Source: Alphaproteobacteria bacterium | Lineage (GTDB): Bacteria; Pseudomonadota; Alphaproteobacteria; UBA828; JAPUJA01 | NCBI GenBank assembly: GCA_965249645.1 | Contig: CBDFML010000010.1 | Coordinates: 416,073 to 440,072, forward strand | Reading direction: 5' to 3' | Length of the DNA stretch: 24,000 nt | Shown here: positions 16,058-24,000 of the stretch, piece by piece | Layout: the number at the start of each line of letters is the position of its first letter | How positions within the stretch are numbered: the first letter of the stretch is position 1 | The notes under the pieces: model-generated | Told to the model about the DNA's origin: nothing | Seen by the model: only the letters and a program-made list of their open reading frames with translations | Databases searched by the model: none | Made by a program: the position numbers and the translations under genes

Positions 16058-16085
16058 CGCGCGCGCGGGCCGGGGAGCACGCCCG

Positions 16086-17351
16086 ATGATCGCGGTGCTC
16101 AACGCCGCCGCAGCACTGCTCGGCCTCGCCGCGCTGTTCGGCTTTCTCAACTATCGCTTTCTCAAACTGCCCCAGCCCATCGGCCTGGTCATCATTGCGC
16201 TGCTCGCGTCCCTCGCGGTGATCGGGCTGGATGCGGTCATCCCTGGTCTCGGCCTCGTGGCCGACGTGCGGGCCGCCGTGATCGAACTGCATTTCTCCGA
16301 GGCGCTGATGCAGGGCATGCTGAGCTTCCTGCTGTTTGCCGGCGCGCTCCATGTCGATCTCGGCGCGCTGGCGGCGCGCAAATGGGCGATCGGCACCATG
16401 GCCAGCGTCGGGGTTCTGATCTCGACCGCGCTGGTTGGTTTCGGCATCTGGGGTGTCTTCGCCCTGCTTGGCATTTCCATGCCGCTGATCTTCTGCCTGG
16501 TGTTCGGGGCGCTGATATCGCCGACCGACCCGGTCGCGGTGTTGGGCATCCTCAAGACGGCGAAGATCCCGAAAAGCCTGGAGGCCAAGATCGCGGGCGA
16601 GAGCTTGTTCAATGACGGCATCGGCGTCGTCGTCTTCATCATCCTCGCCGCCATCGCACTGGGCGGCGGTCATGGTGGCGAGGCGCTCAGCGCCGGCGGC
16701 ATCGCGCTCTTGTTCGCGCAGGAGGCGCTGGGCGGTGCGGCGCTCGGGCTGGCCACGGGCGGGCTCGCATTTTATGCCATTCGCGCTATCGACCAGCACA
16801 ATCTCGAGGTCATCATCACGCTCGCGCTGGTCATGGTGACCTACCAGATCGCCACCGTGCTGCATCTTTCCGGACCCATCGCCGTGGTCGTCGCAGGACT
16901 CCTGATCGGCAACCACGGCACCCGCCTCGCTATGAGCAAGACCACCCGGCTCCATCTGACCAACTTCTGGACCCTGCTCGACGAAATCTTCAACGCCGTG
17001 CTCTTCCTGCTCATCGGCATCGAGCTCCTCGTCATCCCCTTCCAGACCTCGCCGGTGCTTGCCGCCCTGATCGCCATTCCCCTGGTCCTGGCCGCGCGCT
17101 TCGTCTCGGTCGGCCTGCCGATCACCCTGCTCGGCACCTTCCGCGAGTTCACCAAGGGCGCGGTGCCGGTGCTCACCTGGGGCGGCATCCGGGGCGGCAT
17201 CTCCGTTGCCCTCGTGCTGTCGCTTCCCAACTCGCCCGAGCGCGACGTGCTGCTTACTGTGTGCTACGGCGTCGTGCTCTTCTCCATCGTGGTCCAGGGC
17301 CTGACCATCGGCCGCTTCGCCCGGCGCATCGTCGGCGGCGGAAAGGATTAG
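16086..17351 (+). CDS. cation:proton antiporter, CPA1 (NhaP-type Na+/H+ exchanger)
   Basis: 421 aa polytopic membrane protein. It carries the CPA1 motifs LISPTDPVAV and GESLFNDGIGVV. Confidence 0.85.
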   Translation: MIAVLNAAAALLGLAALFGFLNYRFLKLPQPIGLVIIALLASLAVIGLDAVIPGLGLVADVRAAVIELHFSEALMQGMLSFLLFAGALHVDLGALAARKWAIGTMASVGVLISTALVGFGIWGVFALLGISMPLIFCLVFGALISPTDPVAVLGILKTAKIPKSLEAKIAGESLFNDGIGVVVFIILAAIALGGGHGGEALSAGGIALLFAQEALGGAALGLATGGLAFYAIRAIDQHNLEVIITLALVMVTYQIATVLHLSGPIAVVVAGLLIGNHGTRLAMSKTTRLHLTNFWTLLDEIFNAVLFLLIGIELLVIPFQTSPVLAALIAIPLVLAARFVSVGLPITLLGTFREFTKGAVPVLTWGGIRGGISVALVLSLPNSPERDVLLTVCYGVVLFSIVVQGLTIGRFARRIVGGGKD

Positions 17352-17692
17352 CGCGAAATCCGCAGCGTCGGATTTGGCAAGCCGGAAACTGCCGGTCGCC
17401 GCAGGGTCGGGGTTGGCTTGAGGCGCGGCCGATCCCGTAAAAATGCGGCGTGAGCCTGCGCGACGCTTGAGCACGTAAAGAAAATTCTGTCCGGGCTTTG
17501 CGCGTGCTATCAATCGCGCGCCACGCTGTGGAATTCCAATTAGGGCATACAGCCCCTCATCGGAACCGGCAGAAAAGCTAGGGCACAAATTCTGATAGAA
17601 GCAGGCGACTGTTAGAACGGTGCCAAGACCAGCATGGCAATCGCGAGAGAATTTGGAGTGCAGTTCAATAGGGCAGGGCGAGGAGATTACGA

Positions 17693-19114
17693 GTGAATAC
17701 GAACCATTGTGACGTTTTGATCATTGGCGGCGGACCCGGAGGGATCAGCGCGGCGAGCAAAATCGCAATGCAGGGGAAAAAGGCGATCGTCGTCAATGAT
17801 GGACCCTTAATGGGTTACGGTATCGAGGGGGCGTTCAAATCGAAGGCTGGTTACGAGATTGCTCGCGAATATCTACACGTGAGCTACCGTGACGATGTTT
17901 TCGGTCAGATACCCGTGATGGATTATTCCGTGCTGCAGAGGGGTATCGAACGGTCTGCTGCCAGCTTGACGGCGATGCTGAAAACCCGGTTACAACGTCT
18001 CAATGTCAGAGTGGTTCAGGGCAAGGCGAGCTTCGTGGATCCTCACAGGGTGGTAGTGGGTAGTGAGGAATTTTCAGGCGACCATATTGTCATTGCCACA
18101 GGAACCCGACCGAGAATTCTCCCGAATATGTCGGTGGACGGGAAAAGAGTGATCACCAGCGATGAGGCTGTCAACCTGTCGGGTTCCCCAAAAAGCATCC
18201 TGATTTTAGGCGCTGGAATAATTGGCTGTGAATTCGCCACCATATTCAACGCCGTGGGGACCCGGGTTCACCTAGTCGATACCAGAGCTAAAATTTTGTC
18301 TAATGAAGACAAAGACATCAGTGATTTCATCCAAAACGCTTTCGACGCATTGGGCATCGATGTCATCCCCTCCAGCCGCTATCAACGCCATGAGCTACAG
18401 GACAACGGCGTCCGAACAAAGTTGTCCACTGGGGATATCAAAACCGAGGCGATATTGTTGGCCGTGGGACGAATACCCTGCGTGGACGAAATGAATTTGG
18501 CGGCCGCAGGCGTTGCCCTGGACAGCCACAATTATATTCAGATTGATGCGAATGCCCGGACCAATGTGCCTCATATCTACGCGGTCGGTGATGTCGGCAC
18601 CAGAAATGTACCGAGCGATTTGTCGCTTGTTCATGTCGCTGAAGCCGAAGGAAGATGCGCCGCCGCTAACATTCTGGGTGTGGAGTATCCGCAAGGTTTA
18701 GATCACGTCCCCTATATTGTTTTTACCGTACCGATGTTGGCTGGTGCCGGCGTCACCGAAGCGTATGTTCGGGAACAATTCGGCGAAGTCCGGGTCGGCA
18801 AGTACCCCTTTGCGCGAAATCACCGGGCCCATGCCATTCAACCGCCAATCGGGTTTGTGAAACTTATCGTTGGCCCCCCCGGCGACGATCGGATTCTCGG
18901 GGTTCGCGTGGTCGGCCCAAATGCGGACGCGATTGTCGGTGCCGCCTCGATAATGATCGAACGGAACTTCCCCTATACCTACCTATTGGAATCGATTTTT
19001 CCCCACCCGTCCCTGCTGGAGGCCCTCAAGGGCGCGGCACATATTATTGCGGGAGATGCTCTTCAATATGAAGAAGGAGAGGAACTATCCGCCGCACAGG
19101 CGCTTGGTAGATGA
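17693..19114 (+). CDS. FAD/NAD(P)-binding oxidoreductase related to dihydrolipoyl dehydrogenase but lacking the redox-active CxxxxC
   Basis: GTG start. It has the FAD motif DVLIIGGGPGG, the NAD motif ILGAGIIGCEF, the block TNVPHIYAVGDV, and the dimerisation-domain His-Glu block FPHPSLLEALKGAA. Where Lpd has GGxCLNxGCIPSK, this protein reads LMGYGIEGAFKSK. The gene is about 50% GC by hand count. Confidence 0.8.
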   Translation: MNTNHCDVLIIGGGPGGISAASKIAMQGKKAIVVNDGPLMGYGIEGAFKSKAGYEIAREYLHVSYRDDVFGQIPVMDYSVLQRGIERSAASLTAMLKTRLQRLNVRVVQGKASFVDPHRVVVGSEEFSGDHIVIATGTRPRILPNMSVDGKRVITSDEAVNLSGSPKSILILGAGIIGCEFATIFNAVGTRVHLVDTRAKILSNEDKDISDFIQNAFDALGIDVIPSSRYQRHELQDNGVRTKLSTGDIKTEAILLAVGRIPCVDEMNLAAAGVALDSHNYIQIDANARTNVPHIYAVGDVGTRNVPSDLSLVHVAEAEGRCAAANILGVEYPQGLDHVPYIVFTVPMLAGAGVTEAYVREQFGEVRVGKYPFARNHRAHAIQPPIGFVKLIVGPPGDDRILGVRVVGPNADAIVGAASIMIERNFPYTYLLESIFPHPSLLEALKGAAHIIAGDALQYEEGEELSAAQALGR

Positions 19115-19284
19115 GCTTGGCACCCCTGTTGTCATTACGTCCCCTGCCGGCATTCTCACGTTAACCGAGGGTGATTTGGCAATAAAGCGACCAAAGCTCT
19201 CGCGTGGCGAGACGGCGCCATTCAGCAAGTGCGATAACATGGCGGTATAAAAACAAGCCTCGGCAATCTCGATGTATCGTTCGC

Positions 19285-19313
19285 AAAATTTTAGATATGC
19301 CGTCTAGAATTTT
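19285..19313. repeat. AT-rich inverted repeat AAAATTTTAGA-(7 nt)-TCTAGAATTTT
   Basis: Read directly from the sequence. It forms 11 pairs including one G-T position, with loop TATGCCG. It could be a weak hairpin or a dimeric protein-binding site. Confidence 0.6.
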
Positions 19314-19323
19314 GAGAAACGGA

Positions 19324-19340
19324 GGGGGGGGGGGGGGGGG
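19324..19340. repeat. G17 homopolymer (C17 on the minus strand)
   Basis: Counted directly: gga + 17 g + acgcgg. It is intergenic. A complementary CCCCCTCCCC run lies at about 19365-19375. Confidence 0.9.
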
Positions 19341-19427
19341 ACGCGGTGCGCCCACCAAGGGTTTCCCCCTCCCCTGGCGGCACTCGCGCGGCCGGGGAAT
19401 CTTTGTGCAGAGGCGTCGAAAACGCAC

Positions 19428-19472
19428 AAAAAAATGGCGGGGTGGCTTTCCGATCTTCAAGCCGCCCCCGCC
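19428..19472 (-). terminator. Rho-independent terminator (minus strand) ending the small transcription unit
   Basis: On the minus strand, GGCGGGGGCGGCTT-loop-AAGCCACCCCGCC is followed by TTTTTTT (A7 at 19428-19434 on the plus strand). Confidence 0.7.
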
Positions 19473-19594
19473 GTTAGTGCGGAGAGTGATTGCGATGCCT
19501 CACACTATGCTCTCGTGGGTGACCTCCAATGCCGTTGCGTCTGTGTCGCTGCCCCGAGGGGCGGTTTGTGTTTCGTTGCTCGTCGATCGAGCAT
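19430..19594 (-). ncRNA. candidate ~165-nt small RNA, or leaderless mRNA for a 29-aa basic peptide
   Basis: It is bounded by a predicted sigma70-type promoter (19601-19629) and the intrinsic terminator at 19428-19472. No family was recognised. An ATG sits exactly at the predicted +1 (19594), opening MLDRRATKHKPPLGAATQTQRHWRSPTRA. Confidence 0.3.
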
Positions 19595-19600
19595 GGGAGT

Positions 19601-19629
19601 AGTATGCTTATAACGAATAATTATGTCAA
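19601..19629 (-). promoter_or_regulatory. sigma70-like promoter TTGACA-N17-CATACT (minus strand)
   Basis: The -35 is at 19629-19624 and the -10 at 19606-19601. It lies in an AT-rich patch and is 21/29 identical to the promoter at 21787-21815. Confidence 0.5.
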
Positions 19630-19747
19630 CAAAAAAATTCATATTTAGAATTAATTTTTTTGGGCTTTTTCGATAGCGTAGTGACATTTGCCTGGTGGGA
19701 GAGGCCGGCGCGGGCCAGGAGCTGGGCAACTCGATGGTGCGCGTCAT

Positions 19748-19800
19748 AAAAAAATCGGCGGCGGGAGGGGCTTCGAAATTTTGAAGCCATCCCGCCGCCG
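19748..19800 (-). terminator. Rho-independent terminator of the FecR-repeat gene
   Basis: On the minus strand, CGGCGGCGGGA..GGCTTC-loop-GAAGCC..TCCCGCCGCCG is followed by TTTTTTT (A7 at 19748-19754 on the plus strand). It starts 32 nt after the stop codon. Confidence 0.8.
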
Positions 19801-19831
19801 ACGCGGAGAGTCAGGTCGTAGGGGTTGGCAC

Positions 19832-21736
19832 CTACGACTTCTTGCTGTTGCTGTTGCCGCTGCCGCTGTTGCCCGCATTGCCCGCACCGGCGTTTCCGGC
19901 ACCTGCGTTGCCCGCACCGGCGTTTCCGGCACCCGCATTGCCCGCACCGGCATTCCCGGCACCCGCATTGCCCGCACCGGCGTTCCCGGCGCCTGCGTTG
20001 CCCGCACCGGTGTTTCCGGCACCCGCATTGCCCGCACCGGCATTCCCGGCACCCGCATTGCCCGCACCGGCGTTTCCGGCACCGGCATTCCCGGCACCTG
20101 CGTTACCCGCACCAGCGTTTCCGGCACCCCCATTGCCCGCACCGGCGTTCCCGGCACCTGCGTTACCCGCACCGGCATTCCCGGCACCCGCATTGCCCGC
20201 ACCGGCGTTCCCGGCACCCGCATTGCCCGCACCGGCATTCCCGGCGCCTGCGTTGCCCGCACCGGCGTTGCTGGAACCTGCATTGCTGCCGCCGCTATTG
20301 CCACCGGCGTTGGTGTTGCCGGAGTTGCCGGAATTGCCGCTGCCGCTGCTGCCGCCCGCGTTGGCGTTGGCGTTGCCGGAGTTACCCGAATTGCCGCTGC
20401 CGCTGTTGCCGCCGGCGTTGGCGTTGGCGTTGCCGGAGTTGCCGGAATTGCCGCTGCCGCTGTTGCCGCCCGCGTCGGCGTTGGCGTTGCCGGAGTTACC
20501 TGAATTGCCACTGCCGCTGTTGCCGCCGCCGTTGCCGGAATTGCTGTTGGCGGAGTTGCCGCTGTTGCCGTTTCCATTCCCGGAGTTGCCGTTGTCGTTA
20601 CCGTTCCCGGAGTTTCCGTTTCCGTTGCCGTTTCCGTTGTTGCCGTTGCCGTCGTCTCCGTCGTTGTTGCCGTTCCCGTCGTCGTCGCTGTCGTCGTCGT
20701 TTCCGTTTCCGTTTCCGTTTCCGTTGCCGTTCCCGTTCCCGTTGTTGCCGTTGTCATTCGCGGCTGTAACCGCGCTGGGCACGGAATTGCCATTGCCGTT
20801 GTTACCGGAATTGCCGGGGCCCGTTTCTAGGACGGTCGTGATCAGCCCGCTGGTCAGGCCCGAGATGTCGGCCGCGTTGGTGACCAGAACCGCGGTCAGG
20901 GTCGGAGTGCCGCCGACGATGGAATCGCCTCCGCCATAGCCGCCCTCGAGCGTCTCGTGCTCGACGTCCGAGCCTTTGGCCTCCTTGTTCTGACCCCTGG
21001 CGTCATCCTTCGCCTGCTCGGACTTGCCCTTGACCGGATCGGCCGCGCCGTCGGACGGGGTGTCGGTCTCTGTACTCGGAGCGCTATCGTCGACCGCGTC
21101 GGTCTCGACCGCATCCACGCTCGAGGGGCTCTCGCCCGGAGCGTTGCGAATATCCAGGCCCGCGCCGCCCGCGGAGGCGGCGACGGCCGTCTGACCGGGA
21201 ACGATCAGCCCGGTCTGGCCATTGCTCGTCGCGGTCACCTGGACCGCGCCTTCGGTCACGTGCAGCGCAGTGCCGCTCATATTGACCGAGACCGTGAAGG
21301 TCGTGCCCTTGACCACGGCGGCCATGTAGGGGGTCTCGACCTCGAACTGGAACTCGGGCCGGGTCTCGACCTTGAACAGGAGAGTCCCGATCGTCTGGAT
21401 GACCTCGGTGACGACGCCGCCGTCCTTGCGCACCGGAAGTTTCATCTGACTGTCGGGGGAGACGGTGATGGAATCGCCGTCGCGGACCATAACAACCCGC
21501 CCGTCGGCGCCCGTCTCGATCTGGGTGCCCGGTGCGACCGAGTAGCCGGGATAGACATCCACCGCCGAGATCAGAGCCTGCTGCGCCTGGACCCCGCCGC
21601 TGGCGGCCAACACCGTCCAACTGTCGTCGCCGGCCTGCGCGCTGCGGCCCGCAAACGTTACGAGCGCCGCCACTGCGAGAGCGACAACTAATGATCCGAT
21701 CGAGAAACTTTTTCGGTCCGTGCGTACCTGCATCAT
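19832..21736 (-). CDS. secreted FecR-domain protein with a ~330-aa Gly/Asn/Ala/Ser low-complexity repeat tail
   Basis: Signal peptide aa 1-35 (..FAGRSAQA|GDD). FecR-type region aa ~38-190 (VRDGDSITVSPDSQMKL; FEVETPYMAAVVKGTTFTVSV; LHVTEGAVQVTA). An acidic linker follows, then a tail from aa ~306-634. GGAG lies 7 nt before the ATG. The gene has its own promoter and terminator. Confidence 0.85.
   Translation of the reverse strand: MMQVRTDRKSFSIGSLVVALAVAALVTFAGRSAQAGDDSWTVLAASGGVQAQQALISAVDVYPGYSVAPGTQIETGADGRVVMVRDGDSITVSPDSQMKLPVRKDGGVVTEVIQTIGTLLFKVETRPEFQFEVETPYMAAVVKGTTFTVSVNMSGTALHVTEGAVQVTATSNGQTGLIVPGQTAVAASAGGAGLDIRNAPGESPSSVDAVETDAVDDSAPSTETDTPSDGAADPVKGKSEQAKDDARGQNKEAKGSDVEHETLEGGYGGGDSIVGGTPTLTAVLVTNAADISGLTSGLITTVLETGPGNSGNNGNGNSVPSAVTAANDNGNNGNGNGNGNGNGNGNDDDSDDDGNGNNDGDDGNGNNGNGNGNGNSGNGNDNGNSGNGNGNSGNSANSNSGNGGGNSGSGNSGNSGNANADAGGNSGSGNSGNSGNANANAGGNSGSGNSGNSGNANANAGGSSGSGNSGNSGNTNAGGNSGGSNAGSSNAGAGNAGAGNAGAGNAGAGNAGAGNAGAGNAGAGNAGAGNAGAGNGGAGNAGAGNAGAGNAGAGNAGAGNAGAGNAGAGNAGAGNTGAGNAGAGNAGAGNAGAGNAGAGNAGAGNAGAGNAGAGNAGAGNAGNSGSGNSNSKKS
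19871..20284 (-). repeat. about 27 tandem 15-nt units encoding NAGAG; two synonymous-codon versions alternate (30-nt super-unit)
   Basis: The plus strand reads gcccgcaccggcRtt / YccggcaccYgcRtt repeatedly. The minus-strand translation is (NAGAG)n with only NGGAG and NTGAG variants. Confidence 0.9.
20308..20528 (-). repeat. 57-nt tandem repeat x3 plus one 51-nt copy, encoding GGNSGSGNSGNSGNANANA
   Basis: Copies are at 20358-20414, 20415-20471 and 20472-20528, with a shorter copy at 20308-20357. All were aligned by eye with few substitutions. Confidence 0.85.
20529..20815 (-). repeat. GN-dipeptide / hexanucleotide (GTTNCC)n-rich tract with a DDDSDDD patch
   Basis: The purest run, gtttcc x4 then gttgcc and gttccc x2, lies at about 20699-20746. 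The translation is GNGNGNGNGNGNGN... Confidence 0.8.
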
Positions 21737-21786
21737 GACCCGACTCCTATCCTGCTAATCGCCCGCTACCTGCGGACATGGTGCAC

Positions 21787-21815
21787 AATATGCCGAAAAA
21801 GAATATATCTGTCAA
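21787..21815 (-). promoter_or_regulatory. sigma70-like promoter TTGACA-N17-CATATT for the FecR-repeat gene
   Basis: The -35 is at 21815-21810 and the -10 at 21792-21787, inside the only AT-rich patch upstream of the gene. The predicted +1 is near 21779, giving a ~44-nt leader. Confidence 0.55.
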
Positions 21816-22062
21816 TATAAAAATGAATTTATGTCATATTTTATTCTCGGTGTTAACGCTGACGGGGATAAATCCGCAGAAATCGGGGGGTTTGCCCAAT
21901 GCAGCAGCAAGCGCGGTTATGGGGAGTAGGGGCAGCGGCTGACCAGCGCGACGACCCGGGAATCCGGGCTGTGATCGCCACCGAAGCGTTAACCGATTTC
22001 GTGGAATCGGGGAGATCGACCGTCGGTCGAGGATTAGCGTGGTTTGTGCGCCGGGAAGGGCG

Positions 22063-22488
22063 TCAGTCGCCGGCTTTCTTGCGCAGCGCGGCGAGGAAAC
22101 GCTCGCGGTCGGCTTCGCACTTGTCGAGGATCATGGTCAGCGCCGCCGCGACCTCGCGGTTGCGGCCCGCCTTGGCCCGGCGGATAGCCTCGCGGATGGC
22201 GTCGGTCAGGCGTTTGCCCGCGACGCCGGTCATGTCGGCCTTCGACGCCGAGCCGCCCCCGGCTTTGCCGGATTTGCCGTAATGAAAATCTCCGGCCGAG
22301 ACGCTGGAGACTTCGGCGAGGCGGGCGATGATGTCCTGGCGGGGTTCGATCAGGCCGCGCTCCCAGCGCGAGACCAGCCCTTGCGTGACGCCCAGAAAGG
22401 CGGCGAATTTCGCCTGGGTCATGCCCAAACTGGTGCGTGCCGCCTTGATTCGGGCGGCGAGGCCGCTGGTACCCCGTTGGGCGTTCAT
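22063..22488 (-). CDS. XRE-family helix-turn-helix transcriptional regulator with an uncharacterised C-terminal half
   Basis: The N-terminal segment IKAARTSLGMTQAKFAAFLGVTQGLVSRWERGLIEP is a classic HTH_3 pattern. The C-terminal ~70 aa (Gly/Lys linker plus helical segment) has no motif I recognise. Confidence 0.8.
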   Translation of the reverse strand: MNAQRGTSGLAARIKAARTSLGMTQAKFAAFLGVTQGLVSRWERGLIEPRQDIIARLAEVSSVSAGDFHYGKSGKAGGGSASKADMTGVAGKRLTDAIREAIRRAKAGRNREVAAALTMILDKCEADRERFLAALRKKAGD

Positions 22489-22667
22489 CCCACTTTGCCC
22501 TCAATTTCCAAATCCCGGCCCCTCACAGGATCGAAGCCACCCGACCGCGATTTCCACTCACAAGCGGTAGTATGCCCCGACTATAGCGAGCGGCGCGGCG
22601 TCTGTCGCCGGTCTGTCATCGTGTCGGGGGTAATTTTACTAAAGCCCGGGGACGCGGTGCAAGGCCG

Positions 22668-23930
22668 TCAGGCCGATGCCTTGGCCGGGCCGGCCGCAAA
22701 GGCGGCCTCGCGCTCGTTTGCGGGACGTGCGGCGTCAAGGCGTCGGACCGGCCAGCGCGCCTCGTCGAGCCAGGCCGGAAAATCCGCTGAAGGCATGGGT
22801 CGGCTGATGAAATAGCCCTGACCCGTGTCGCACATTTCGTCCTCCAAGTGGTCCAGGTGGGCCTGTTCCTCGATACCCTCGGCGACCACCTTCAGGCCAA
22901 GATTGTGCGCCAGGTCGACGGTGGCGCGAACGATCACCGCGTCGCTTTCGTCTTCTATCATGTGAATGACGAAGGATTTGTCGATCTTGAGCTCGTCCAC
23001 CGGGAGGCGCTTGAGGTAACTGAGCGAGGAATACTCGGTTCCGAAGTCGTCGATCGACAGCCGGACATTGAGGGCGTCCAACGCCTTCACGGTCTCGAGG
23101 GCCCGATCGGGATCGAGCATGATGGCGCCTTCGGTGATTTCAAGGGTAATTCGCGCGCGGTCGAGATTCCATTTTTCCAGCAACCCGTCGATCAGTTCGG
23201 GCAAGTCCTGATCGTGAAGGTTTCGGGTAGACAGGTTGACGGCGAGGTTGAGGTCGAGCCCCTGGTCGCGCCATGCGGCCTGCTGGGCAAAGCCGCGCTC
23301 GAGCACCCATTTGGTCAAGGGGCGAATCAGGCCGGTTTTCTCGGCAAGCGCGACGAATTCCTCGGGATTCTGAAACCCGTAGGTCGGATGTTCCCAGCGC
23401 AGCAATGCTTCGGCGCCCACGATCATGCCAGACGCGATGTCGATCTTGGGTTGGTAGTGAATATCGAGCCCGTTTTGGTCGATGGCGTGGCGCAAATCGC
23501 CCTTCATGGTCAGATTGCGAACCGTGTGGTGGTCCAGTTCGGCGTCGTAATGCGCGATATTTTCGGGCTTCTGTTTGGCCAGATACATCGCGACGTCGGC
23601 ACACTGCATCAGCCGACTTGCCTCGTTCGCGTGATCTGGATAGAGCGCGATGCCGATGCTGGCGCCGATCTCGAGCGACAGGTCGTCGATCTCGAAGGGC
23701 TCGACGAGAATGGCGAGACAGCGGTCGGCAATGCATTCGGCCCAGTCCGGGCCGCTGACTTTGGGCAGAAGGATGGCGAATTCGTCGCCCCCGAGACGCG
23801 CAATGGTGTCCGATTTGCGCAACAGGCCGGCCAGGCGTTGTGCGACTGTCAATGGCGGAGCAAAAAGGGACCACCGTGGCGGTGTAAGAAGGGACCACTT
23901 GGCGGCTGCGGGCTTGTCCCCGTAGTCCAT
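22668..23930 (-). CDS. GGDEF(N-terminally truncated)-EAL cyclic-di-GMP phosphodiesterase-type protein; possibly a disrupted gene
   Basis: The EAL domain looks intact (EALLRWEHP, DDFGTEYSSLSYL, KIDKSF, EGIE, QGYFISRP). The GGDEF motif (RLGGDEFAILL) sits at aa 47-51, so most of the GGDEF domain's N-terminal half is missing. The frame stays open to the window edge, but that upstream sequence is not GGDEF-like. Confidence 0.8.
   Translation of the reverse strand: MDYGDKPAAAKWSLLTPPRWSLFAPPLTVAQRLAGLLRKSDTIARLGGDEFAILLPKVSGPDWAECIADRCLAILVEPFEIDDLSLEIGASIGIALYPDHANEASRLMQCADVAMYLAKQKPENIAHYDAELDHHTVRNLTMKGDLRHAIDQNGLDIHYQPKIDIASGMIVGAEALLRWEHPTYGFQNPEEFVALAEKTGLIRPLTKWVLERGFAQQAAWRDQGLDLNLAVNLSTRNLHDQDLPELIDGLLEKWNLDRARITLEITEGAIMLDPDRALETVKALDALNVRLSIDDFGTEYSSLSYLKRLPVDELKIDKSFVIHMIEDESDAVIVRATVDLAHNLGLKVVAEGIEEQAHLDHLEDEMCDTGQGYFISRPMPSADFPAWLDEARWPVRRLDAARPANEREAAFAAGPAKASA
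23853..23905. repeat. tandem 24-mers TGGCGG-N8-GGGACCAC-N2 (x2, plus a third GGCGG) at the point where GGDEF homology stops
   Basis: TGGCGGAGCAAAAAGGGACCACCG (23853-23876) and TGGCGGTGTAAGAAGGGACCACTT (23877-23900) match at 19/24 positions. A third GGCGG follows at 23901-23905. Confidence 0.75.
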
Positions 23931-24000
23931 GGGAGGGCCCCGCGTGCGACGCGGCGTGCCCTCAACAGGCCGACGCGGCGGCGCGCGCGGGAGGGACCTG

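Follow-up and report, generated by a model that had tools for sequence, protein, structure and literature searches.

What does an exported FecR-domain protein do with a tail of more than 300 residues made almost only of Gly, Asn, Ala and Ser? The question was raised by a minus-strand gene at positions 19832-21736 of a 24,000-nt stretch of DNA from an Alphaproteobacteria bacterium (assembly GCA_965249645.1, contig CBDFML010000010.1, positions 416,073 to 440,072 of the forward strand), which is referred to as the window. An earlier description made from the letters alone (the sequence-only reading) had assigned no function to the protein. We found no new kind of system here, but an extreme member of a large alphaproteobacterial family that is annotated ("FecR family protein") and experimentally uncharacterized. 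The neighborhood of the family's genes now allows a context-based hypothesis of function: the gene probably encodes the Sec-exported FecR component of a widespread alphaproteobacterial envelope-signaling module, in which the protein would be an adaptor or spacer linking an outer-membrane protein to a CHASE2 sensor.

The open reading frame (ORF) was present as first described, intact and 1,905 nt long (634 codons and a stop codon), and the long ORFs that overlap it on either strand were by-products of the repeats. The protein consists, in order, of a Sec-type signal peptide, a FecR fold, an acidic linker, a short hydrophobic motif and a 329-aa tail. The gene and these parts are located as follows (pLDDT, predicted local distance difference test; AF2, AlphaFold2).

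19832..21736, minus strand: complete gene of the exported FecR-domain protein, low-complexity tail included (ORF list; Pfam FecR and Pentapeptide_2; 436 homologues).
21632..21736, minus strand: signal peptide, aa 1-35, with predicted cleavage after AQA (sequence features; AF2 helix 14-24; equivalent N-termini of the homologues).
21137..21631, minus strand: FecR-fold beta domain, aa 36-200 (PF04773; AF2; Foldseek; 19 invariant columns in the 120-sequence alignment).
20906..21136, minus strand: acidic linker, predicted to be disordered, aa 201-277 (composition; pLDDT <50).
20837..20905, minus strand: family motif of ~22 aa, consensus RISxxLGEVxLNFxKVTxGLA, the window copy PTLTAVLVTNAADISGLTSGLIT being partly divergent (per-column counts).
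19835..20821, minus strand: G/N/A/S tail, aa 306-634, with a basic ...SKKS end (composition; both AF2 runs; comparison of 120 members).

The N-terminus (MMQVRTDRKSFSIGSLVVALAVAALVTFAGRSAQA, followed by GDD) has the basic n-region, the hydrophobic core and the AQA site of a Sec-type signal peptide, as read directly from the sequence, and contains no lipobox Cys; in the top-matching homologues the domain starts at approximately residue 30-45. The FecR domain proposed by the sequence-only reading was recovered by Pfam (PF04773, 41.8 bits against a cut-off of 24, aa 72-166). AF2, run on the alignment of 120 family sequences, gave an all-beta domain over aa 40-200 with pLDDT of ~90-97, for which Foldseek gave two matches at E ~1e-7, the C-terminal cell-surface signaling domain of PupR (6OVK) and BDI_1681 (4M0N), an anti-sigma protein of Bacteroidales (135-137 aligned columns, root-mean-square deviation of 2.6-3.9 A, ~17% sequence identity). 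When the N-terminal 273 aa were compared by sequence with all PDB chains, there was no match at E<=10; thus, the relation to PupR is visible by fold only. The residues invariant in all 120 sequences, including that of the window, were W40, G47, G117, F131, V133, T135, P136, A139 and A140, together with K143, G144, T145, F147, V149, G163, V165, V167 and G181. The linker is acidic, as had been noticed (13% D, 9% E and 11% S over aa 201-285, an interval that runs slightly past its end).

A word-indexed homologue search with the first 318 residues as query found 436 relatives, all with PF04773 as their sole domain. An exhaustive HMMER scan of 1.84 billion representatives (at 50% identity) returned 1,582 of them at E<=1e-10, so that the protein is no isolated oddity: its family comprises at least 1,500 sequence clusters, with tails that are usually G/N-rich. 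Among the matches listed, the domain usually began ~25-60 residues from the N-terminus, as a preceding signal peptide would predict. The homologues inspected shared a signal peptide, the FecR domain, a variable and often acidic linker, the short conserved motif and a low-complexity tail; orthologues carry tails too and do not stop at approximately aa 300, so that this refuting condition of the sequence-only reading failed. Identity of the FecR domain to family members was 30-47%, and it was 69% to L008, the closest genomic relative. The proteins annotated as "FecR family protein" or "FecR domain-containing protein" in Bradyrhizobium, Rhodospirillales, Kiloniellales and Sphingomonadales have the same signal peptide, FecR domain, acidic or low-complexity linker, T-x-G-L motif, G/N tail and basic C-terminus. 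The window protein differs from them by a tail approximately three-times as long as the median, by NAGAG and 19-aa arrays of its own, by the gene order (sensor, helix-turn-helix [HTH] gene, FecR gene) and by partners disrupted by insertion sequences (IS).

The short hydrophobic patch that the sequence-only reading had reported is real, but its meaning had been missed: it is the second conserved element of the family. Among the 120 sequences, G297 and I/L280 were found in 120, T295 in 114 and L298 in 110, the last two thus in at least 90%. A hidden Markov model (HMM) of the motif recovered it in 55 of 76 genome loci. The window copy retains L280, L284, D290, I291, T295, G297 and L298; its second half is kept and its first half diverges.

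The tail after the motif had a median length of 118 aa in the family and was 335 aa in the window protein (61% G+N), the longest of the 120 compared. At least 30% G+N was found in 87% of the family tails, a 40-aa window with at least 70% G/N in 64% of the proteins, and most tails ended in a few K/R/H residues. By sequence comparison, therefore, the G/N tail is a family trait that is expanded approximately threefold in the window copy; the NAGAG and 19-aa arrays were absent from the homologues inspected. Other tail types also occur, being A/E/K-rich in L008 and P/A/V/S-rich in P0012, while P0011 ends in a run of nine Asp. The tail can thus be swapped among low-complexity types within the family, which suggests that an extended spacer, flexible or stiff, is what is selected and not a specific fold. 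In L008 (5932-7500), a very acidic linker is followed by ~200 A/E/K-rich residues (AAKAAEEAAK...) in place of a G/N tail. In five loci from Sphingomonadales, Brevundimonas and an unclassified Pseudomonadota metagenome-assembled genome (L012, L014, L046, L056 and L066), FecR-family ORFs of ~650-1,100 residues were seen, these lengths being stop-to-stop estimates. The motif HMM missed all of these except L012, where the match was weak and partial (10.7 bits); long tails are thus present in other clades, possibly with a different docking element.

The neighborhood of these genes carried the proposal of function. In all four homologue contigs that were looked up, a divergent ShlB/POTRA_2 (TpsB-type) gene was followed by the FecR gene and then by a CHASE2 sensor gene, with HisKA-HATPase or PAS-GGDEF-EAL as the sensor output. 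HMMs of the two partners were built from these four loci and scanned over the 76 genome loci fetched with the family alignment. Both partners were present in that arrangement in 66 of the 76 loci, and a ShlB/POTRA_2 gene adjoined in 74, encoding proteins of TpsB size (552-598 aa). Eight loci had ShlB only, and in seven of them at most ~1.3 kb of contig remained past the FecR match (L045 was the exception); of the remaining two, L017 ends ~530 nt upstream of the FecR match, and L008 has a CHASE2 gene but lacks a ShlB gene within 6 kb. The neighborhood of the family is thus nearly invariant, in Bradyrhizobium and other Hyphomicrobiales, Rhodospirillales/Kiloniellales, Sphingomonadales, Parvularculaceae and Brevundimonas. 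The usual order was FecR gene, then sensor gene; the sensor gene came first in L008, in L021 and, with an HTH gene between, in the window. As the sequence-only reading had remarked, a scan of the window found no ECF (extracytoplasmic function) sigma and no TonB-receptor gene, and neither kind of gene adjoined in the four homologous loci with gene lists, where one sigma-70 r2/r4 gene lay ~8 kb from the FecR gene in L004/L005. That remark was correct, but the relevant neighbors are the ShlB/POTRA_2 gene and the CHASE2 sensor gene, a remnant of which is found in the window at 22668-23930. When FecR-ShlB fusions were sought in the 76 loci, the single apparent overlap (L018) was an opposite-strand stop-to-stop ORF running over the FecR match and was taken as an artifact. 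Our literature search on CHASE2 with FecR, POTRA, ShlB or hemolysin found no paper on the three-gene module.

We propose that the module consists of a TpsB/ShlB-type POTRA outer-membrane protein, the FecR protein and an inner-membrane CHASE2 sensor with cyclic di-GMP (c-di-GMP) turnover or histidine kinase output. The FecR protein would be exported by Sec, lose its signal peptide and be released into the periplasm, where the folded FecR domain would serve as a protein-protein relay module at the periplasmic face, and the ~22-aa motif would dock the protein to a partner, plausibly the POTRA domains. The tail would be a flexible extended spacer or bristle, selected for its length and general character and not for its exact sequence. 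Together with the TpsB-type outer-membrane protein, the FecR protein would feed the CHASE2 sensor. In signaling from FecA to FecR, the periplasmic domains of FecR and PupR pass a signal inward from an outer-membrane partner.

Comparable arrangements have been described elsewhere. In Sinorhizobium meliloti, NsrA carries signals from the outer membrane to CHASE2 cyclases (PMC7529298, PMC13001267), and the likeness lies in an outer-membrane beta-barrel protein that is coupled functionally to inner-membrane CHASE2 sensors, there the adenylate cyclases CyaK, CyaD1 and CyaD2. NsrA is a single polypeptide of ~1,200 aa with its barrel in the C-terminal half (aa 600-1200; PMC7529298) and no G/N tail described, whereas in the module the FecR protein and the barrel are separate genes and the sensors have GGDEF-EAL or HisKA outputs; no outer-membrane beta-barrel was found in the window FecR protein by Pfam or AF2. 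The LysM-FecR and CHASE2 histidine kinase genes that form an operon in Burkholderia and Pseudomonas (COG4254; PA4035-like) likewise place an exported FecR protein beside a CHASE2 sensor, with a non-FecR part that is envelope-associating (PMC5192318), but there the protein has a LysM domain that binds peptidoglycan, and both a ShlB partner and a low-complexity tail are missing. In Campylobacterota, a FecR-domain outer-membrane protein clusters with CHASE2 cyclases (PMC9239204), and Caulobacter has a co-regulated cluster of CHASE2, hypothetical, TPR and HxuB-like genes (PMC11724286). Neither the three-gene module nor a G/N tail is described in these five papers (PMC7529298, PMC13001267, PMC5192318, PMC9239204 and PMC11724286).

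Several points weigh against a role as adaptor or spacer. All functional links are drawn from gene neighborhood and analogy, and our literature search turned up no experimental work on a member of this exact family. One would expect a spacer to connect two binding modules, yet the tail lies C-terminal to both, which fits a threaded or surface tail at least as well. A FecR domain within NsrA is no more than probable. The window motif deviates at conserved positions (V for G285, which 113 of the 120 sequences have, N for V287 and A for L289), and the lack of structure in the AF2 models of the tail is no proof of disorder. Neither partner is intact nearby in this strain, so the protein may be functionless at present.

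The main rival, which we hold to be possible but doubtful, is a noncanonical form of two-partner secretion (TPS), in which the FecR protein would be the cargo of the adjacent TpsB/ShlB protein. The motif would be the recognition signal and the tail would be threaded through the 16-stranded barrel and displayed at the surface, with the FecR domain staying in the periplasm on the CHASE2 sensor, the whole forming a trans-envelope tether that would sense surface contact or the state of the envelope. TpsB proteins are dedicated to exporting the partner encoded beside them, and a neighbor of TpsB size is encoded alongside in nearly all loci, as described. A Gly/Asn-rich chain predicted to be structureless should pass easily through a narrow pore, and both conserved elements lie N-terminal to the tail. 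Repeat-length polymorphism from strain to strain is typical of surface-exposed proteins, and NxGxG stalks are known in cell-surface proteins. With the TpsA proteins of two-partner (type Vb) secretion the protein has in common a Sec signal peptide and, in its family, the TpsB-type neighbor. However, it is small, the Pfam scan found no TPS (hemagglutination activity) domain, AF2 showed no beta-helical passenger, and the genes are divergently transcribed, not arranged as a tpsBA operon. In L008, the closest relative, a ShlB gene is absent within 6 kb and the tail is of the A/E/K type, and surface localization is a prediction only. We regard as somewhat more doubtful still the view that the ShlB-FecR-CHASE2 trio is an undescribed trans-envelope sensor, in which TpsB would thread the tail outside without a TPS domain and FecR would be docked on CHASE2, so that surface events (contact, binding, Asn-Gly deamidation or proteolysis) would drive c-di-GMP or histidine kinase signaling. 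If true, this would be the first mechanism for CHASE2, and the strain-variable tail length would tune or diversify the exposed part.

Whether the protein acts as a periplasmic adaptor or is threaded outward, its tail has a composition bias far beyond chance. The tail is ~93% G/N/A/S, and over aa 313-634 Gly accounts for 35%, Asn for 27%, Ala for 20%, Ser for 11% and Asp for 4%. The DDDSDDD patch and the terminal ...GNSNSKKS, both reported at the outset, are present. Three repeat regions make up most of its length (TRF, Tandem Repeats Finder).

20537..20758, minus strand: GN-dipeptide region with the DDDSDDD patch, aa ~327-400 (TRF period 6/18).
20306..20534, minus strand: four copies of a 57-bp/19-aa unit, GGNSGSGNSGNSGNANANA (TRF period 57, 4.0 copies, 91% matches; repeat family D4).
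19880..20269, minus strand: 26 tandem NAGAG pentapeptides (NxGxG), aa 490-619 (unit listing; TRF periods 30 and 90; Pfam Pentapeptide_2).

In the NAGAG array, 24 of the 26 units were identical as peptides and were encoded by 12 distinct 15-nt unit types. Minor-allele bases were found 55 times at third codon positions and twice at first or second positions. The minimum number of events was at least nine synonymous and two nonsynonymous, against a neutral expectation of ~70% nonsynonymous (binomial estimate, P ~6e-4). The variation is thus almost exclusively synonymous, and the peptide, not just the DNA repeat, is maintained under constraint. The GN region differed from that of P0001 by indels of 4 and at least 6 residues, all in frame (multiples of three); the length of this tract differs among near-identical strains with the frame kept. 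Between the window and the metagenomic contig L001, 4 synonymous and 2 nonsynonymous differences were found in 330 codons, too few for an informative dN/dS. The tail would have grown to approximately three-times the family median by in-frame tandem duplication (GN runs, 4 x 19 aa and 26 x NAGAG).

The exported FecR protein with a long, probably disordered extension that the sequence-only reading had envisaged agrees with the AF2 models, in which the tail is predicted to be disordered (pLDDT <50 in the model built on the alignment; for aa 401-634 alone, pLDDT 31 without secondary structure). A pentapeptide-repeat beta-helix or solenoid for the NAGAG array was unsupported by the same models. The analogy with mycobacterial PGRS or prion-like domains was replaced by a match to the NxGxG family Pentapeptide_2 (PF01469), just above threshold (28.5 bits against 26.4), which is a resemblance only. 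In mycobacterial PPE-MPTR proteins this family stands beside a PPE domain; the 26 NAGAG units fit its NxGxG pattern, but the window protein has no PPE domain by Pfam and no actinobacterial or ESX context, its neighbors (fab, lpt, surA and pepA genes) and best homologues being alphaproteobacterial. A search with the tail only found NxGxG stretches in otherwise unrelated proteins (P0121, P0124 and P0154). In the examples with a cohesin domain or an LPXTG signal, they connect a functional domain to an anchor in the membrane or wall, and in DUF7666 proteins they follow the domain with no evident anchor. The likeness to these proteins is compositional and not homology, and it is probably convergent. 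The NSGSG-type repeats of P0121, P0124 and P0154 hint at a general convergent use as stalks outside mycobacterial PPE proteins.

The promoter, Shine-Dalgarno sequence and terminator that the sequence-only reading had credited to the gene were all located by prediction.

21787..21815, minus strand: sigma-70-like promoter, TTGACA-17-CATATT, in an AT-rich stretch (consensus scan, 10/12 matches; predicted).
21744-21748, minus strand: Shine-Dalgarno sequence AGGAG, 7 nt before the ATG (sequence).
19748..19801, minus strand: intrinsic terminator, a GC-rich hairpin and then U7, 30 nt past the stop codon (fold prediction).

The terminator hairpin had a predicted energy of -44 kcal/mol (z = -5.54), and none of 200 shuffles was equally stable. 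No Rfam family reached the gathering score over the whole window, and around the terminator there were only sub-threshold matches at chance level. Given the intact ORF, the promoter-like site and the terminator, the FecR-domain gene may be expressed here. A second promoter-like site (TTGACA-17-CATACT, 10/12) lies within 19430-19629 on the minus strand, in an AT-rich stretch resembling the promoter region of the FecR gene, and a GGCGGGG...CCCCGCC hairpin with U7 follows ~130-170 nt downstream. The pair might yield a small transcript of ~170 nt just downstream of the FecR gene; its fold z was only -2.5 and it had no Rfam match. The intergenic region between the FecR gene and an oxidoreductase gene contains a run of 17 G (19324-19340; 17 C on the minus strand), which might cause slippage or hamper sequencing.

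In this strain the module itself is broken. Three features lie upstream of the FecR gene.

22063..22488, minus strand: gene for an XRE-type HTH protein of 141 aa, between the sensor remnant and the FecR gene (Pfam HTH_3, 48.7 bits).
22668..23930, minus strand: remnant of the module sensor, with an N-truncated GGDEF and a complete EAL domain (GGDEF match beginning at profile position 61 of 161; EAL, 239.8 bits).
23843..24000, minus strand: end of an IS21-type element, adjoining the truncated sensor gene (comparison with L001).

The remnant was 67% identical to residues 653-1044 (the C-terminal 392) of a 1,044-aa CHASE2-PAS-GGDEF-EAL protein whose gene precedes the FecR gene in L008, and its first ~28 codons come from the IS21-type end. 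In L001, the 158 nt of this end recur behind both IS21 (IstA/IstB) copies, beyond which the sequences diverge. L001 was 98.7-99.3% identical to the window over 16080-19235 and 20618-24000, and it has the HTH gene at the same position; at the equivalent place in L008, no ORF reaches 120 aa. Beyond its IS21, L001 carries a 196-aa ShlB fragment, and its FecR gene is cut at approximately aa 377 by an IS3-family element that replaces window 19236-20617. No ShlB gene was found within the window, which ends inside the IS. The module is thus dismantled here by insertion sequences: the sensor lacks its CHASE2-PAS half and a ShlB gene is missing from the window. The FecR protein is probably orphaned, its cognate input or output partner lost unless the genome holds a second copy elsewhere.

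The IS21-type end carries an outward-reading ATG (MDYGDKPAAAKWSLLTPPRWSLFAPPLT) that makes an in-frame fusion to the truncated GGDEF-EAL gene (23843-23930). A 98.7%-identical copy of this end is found at 2547-2700 of L008, directly before the first transmembrane segment of the CHASE2 sensor, which is intact there, so that the same IS end occurs at the 5' side of the sensor gene in two different lineages. Downstream of the L008 FecR gene there are a Mutator-family transposase and a TPR protein.

The state of the locus raises the alternative that the gene is a decaying relic, in which the partners were lost to insertion sequences, selection is gone and the long tail is runaway replication slippage in a future pseudogene. 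The truncated sensor, the ShlB fragment of L001 and its interrupted FecR gene (an insertion which shows that loss of this gene can occur), a tail longer than any other among the 120 compared, the partly degenerate motif and the mosaic, IS-rich island beside core genes all fit this. However, the ORF is intact and in frame across ~1 kb of repeats, with a promoter-like site, a Shine-Dalgarno sequence and a strong terminator; the indels relative to P0001 are all multiples of three; and neutral decay would not leave NAGAG units that differ almost only synonymously. The IS events may also be very recent, as the identity between the two contigs suggests. We consider this alternative improbable.

A misassembly of the repeat arrays (expanded, chimeric or frame-shifted), with a true protein that is much shorter, would concern residues 374-634. 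The independent assembly L001 (98.7% nucleotide identity) backs only aa 1 to ~373 and then diverges through its IS, the 19-aa and NAGAG arrays are seen only in the window, tandem repeats are prone to misassembly, and a lookup of the exact 634-aa product returned zero matching records. This reading is very unlikely nevertheless, as the units are only 86-91% identical in DNA and their 12 distinct 15-nt types give an assembler anchor points, the frame, the basic C-terminus and the G/N composition typical of the family are kept, the ORF stops 30 nt before the terminator, and other family members reach 547-645 aa.

A classical FecR/PupR-type anti-sigma regulator of iron or cell-surface signaling, to which we give next to no probability, was suggested by the Pfam match and the structural likeness to PupR and BDI_1681 (the periplasmic FecR-fold beta domain, and probably the same general relay role, being common to both) and was refuted by architecture and context: there is no N-terminal anti-sigma domain (no other N-terminal Pfam match was found, as the sequence-only reading had anticipated), no transmembrane helix besides the cleavable signal peptide, no STN-like FecR_C domain by Pfam and no ECF sigma or TonB-dependent transducer partner in the window or adjoining in the four listed loci, and the NCBIfam FecR equivalog scored 11.8 bits against a cut-off of 385. 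A Leptospira lipoprotein or adhesin was likewise rejected (LipL45, 40.7 against 420 bits; Lsa33, 24.5 against 350; Lsa19, 22.1 against 250), with only the FecR region aligning and no lipobox.

The rest of the window is core chromosome, with fabD-fabG-fabF, mltG, gmk, an rRNA adenine dimethylase gene (RsmA/KsgA-type), surA, lptD, lptG, lptF and pepA, followed by a Na+/H+ exchanger gene and a low-GC gene for a pyridine-nucleotide disulfide oxidoreductase. The latter (17693-19114, plus strand, 473 aa) has 52-57% GC against ~65% elsewhere, which suggests horizontal acquisition. To the left of window position 16080, L001 has different content (an OEP gene and a second IS21), and 16080-24000 appears as a mosaic, IS-rich accessory island abutting the conserved pepA-lptFG-lptD-surA block.

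CHASE2 is among the commonest bacterial extracytoplasmic sensor domains, and we know of no signal or mechanism established for it. Within the loci of this family, a FecR protein, a TpsB-type outer-membrane protein and a CHASE2 sensor are nearly always encoded together (66/76), and the FecR protein has a low-complexity tail under selection as well as a conserved, docking-like motif. This pattern is a concrete three-component hypothesis and offers a testable handle on CHASE2 signaling in tractable Bradyrhizobium or Caulobacter. The window copy is useful as the extreme of the family, with the longest tail of 120, constraint at the peptide level and length variation from strain to strain, and as a natural orphan case from which insertion sequences have removed the partners.

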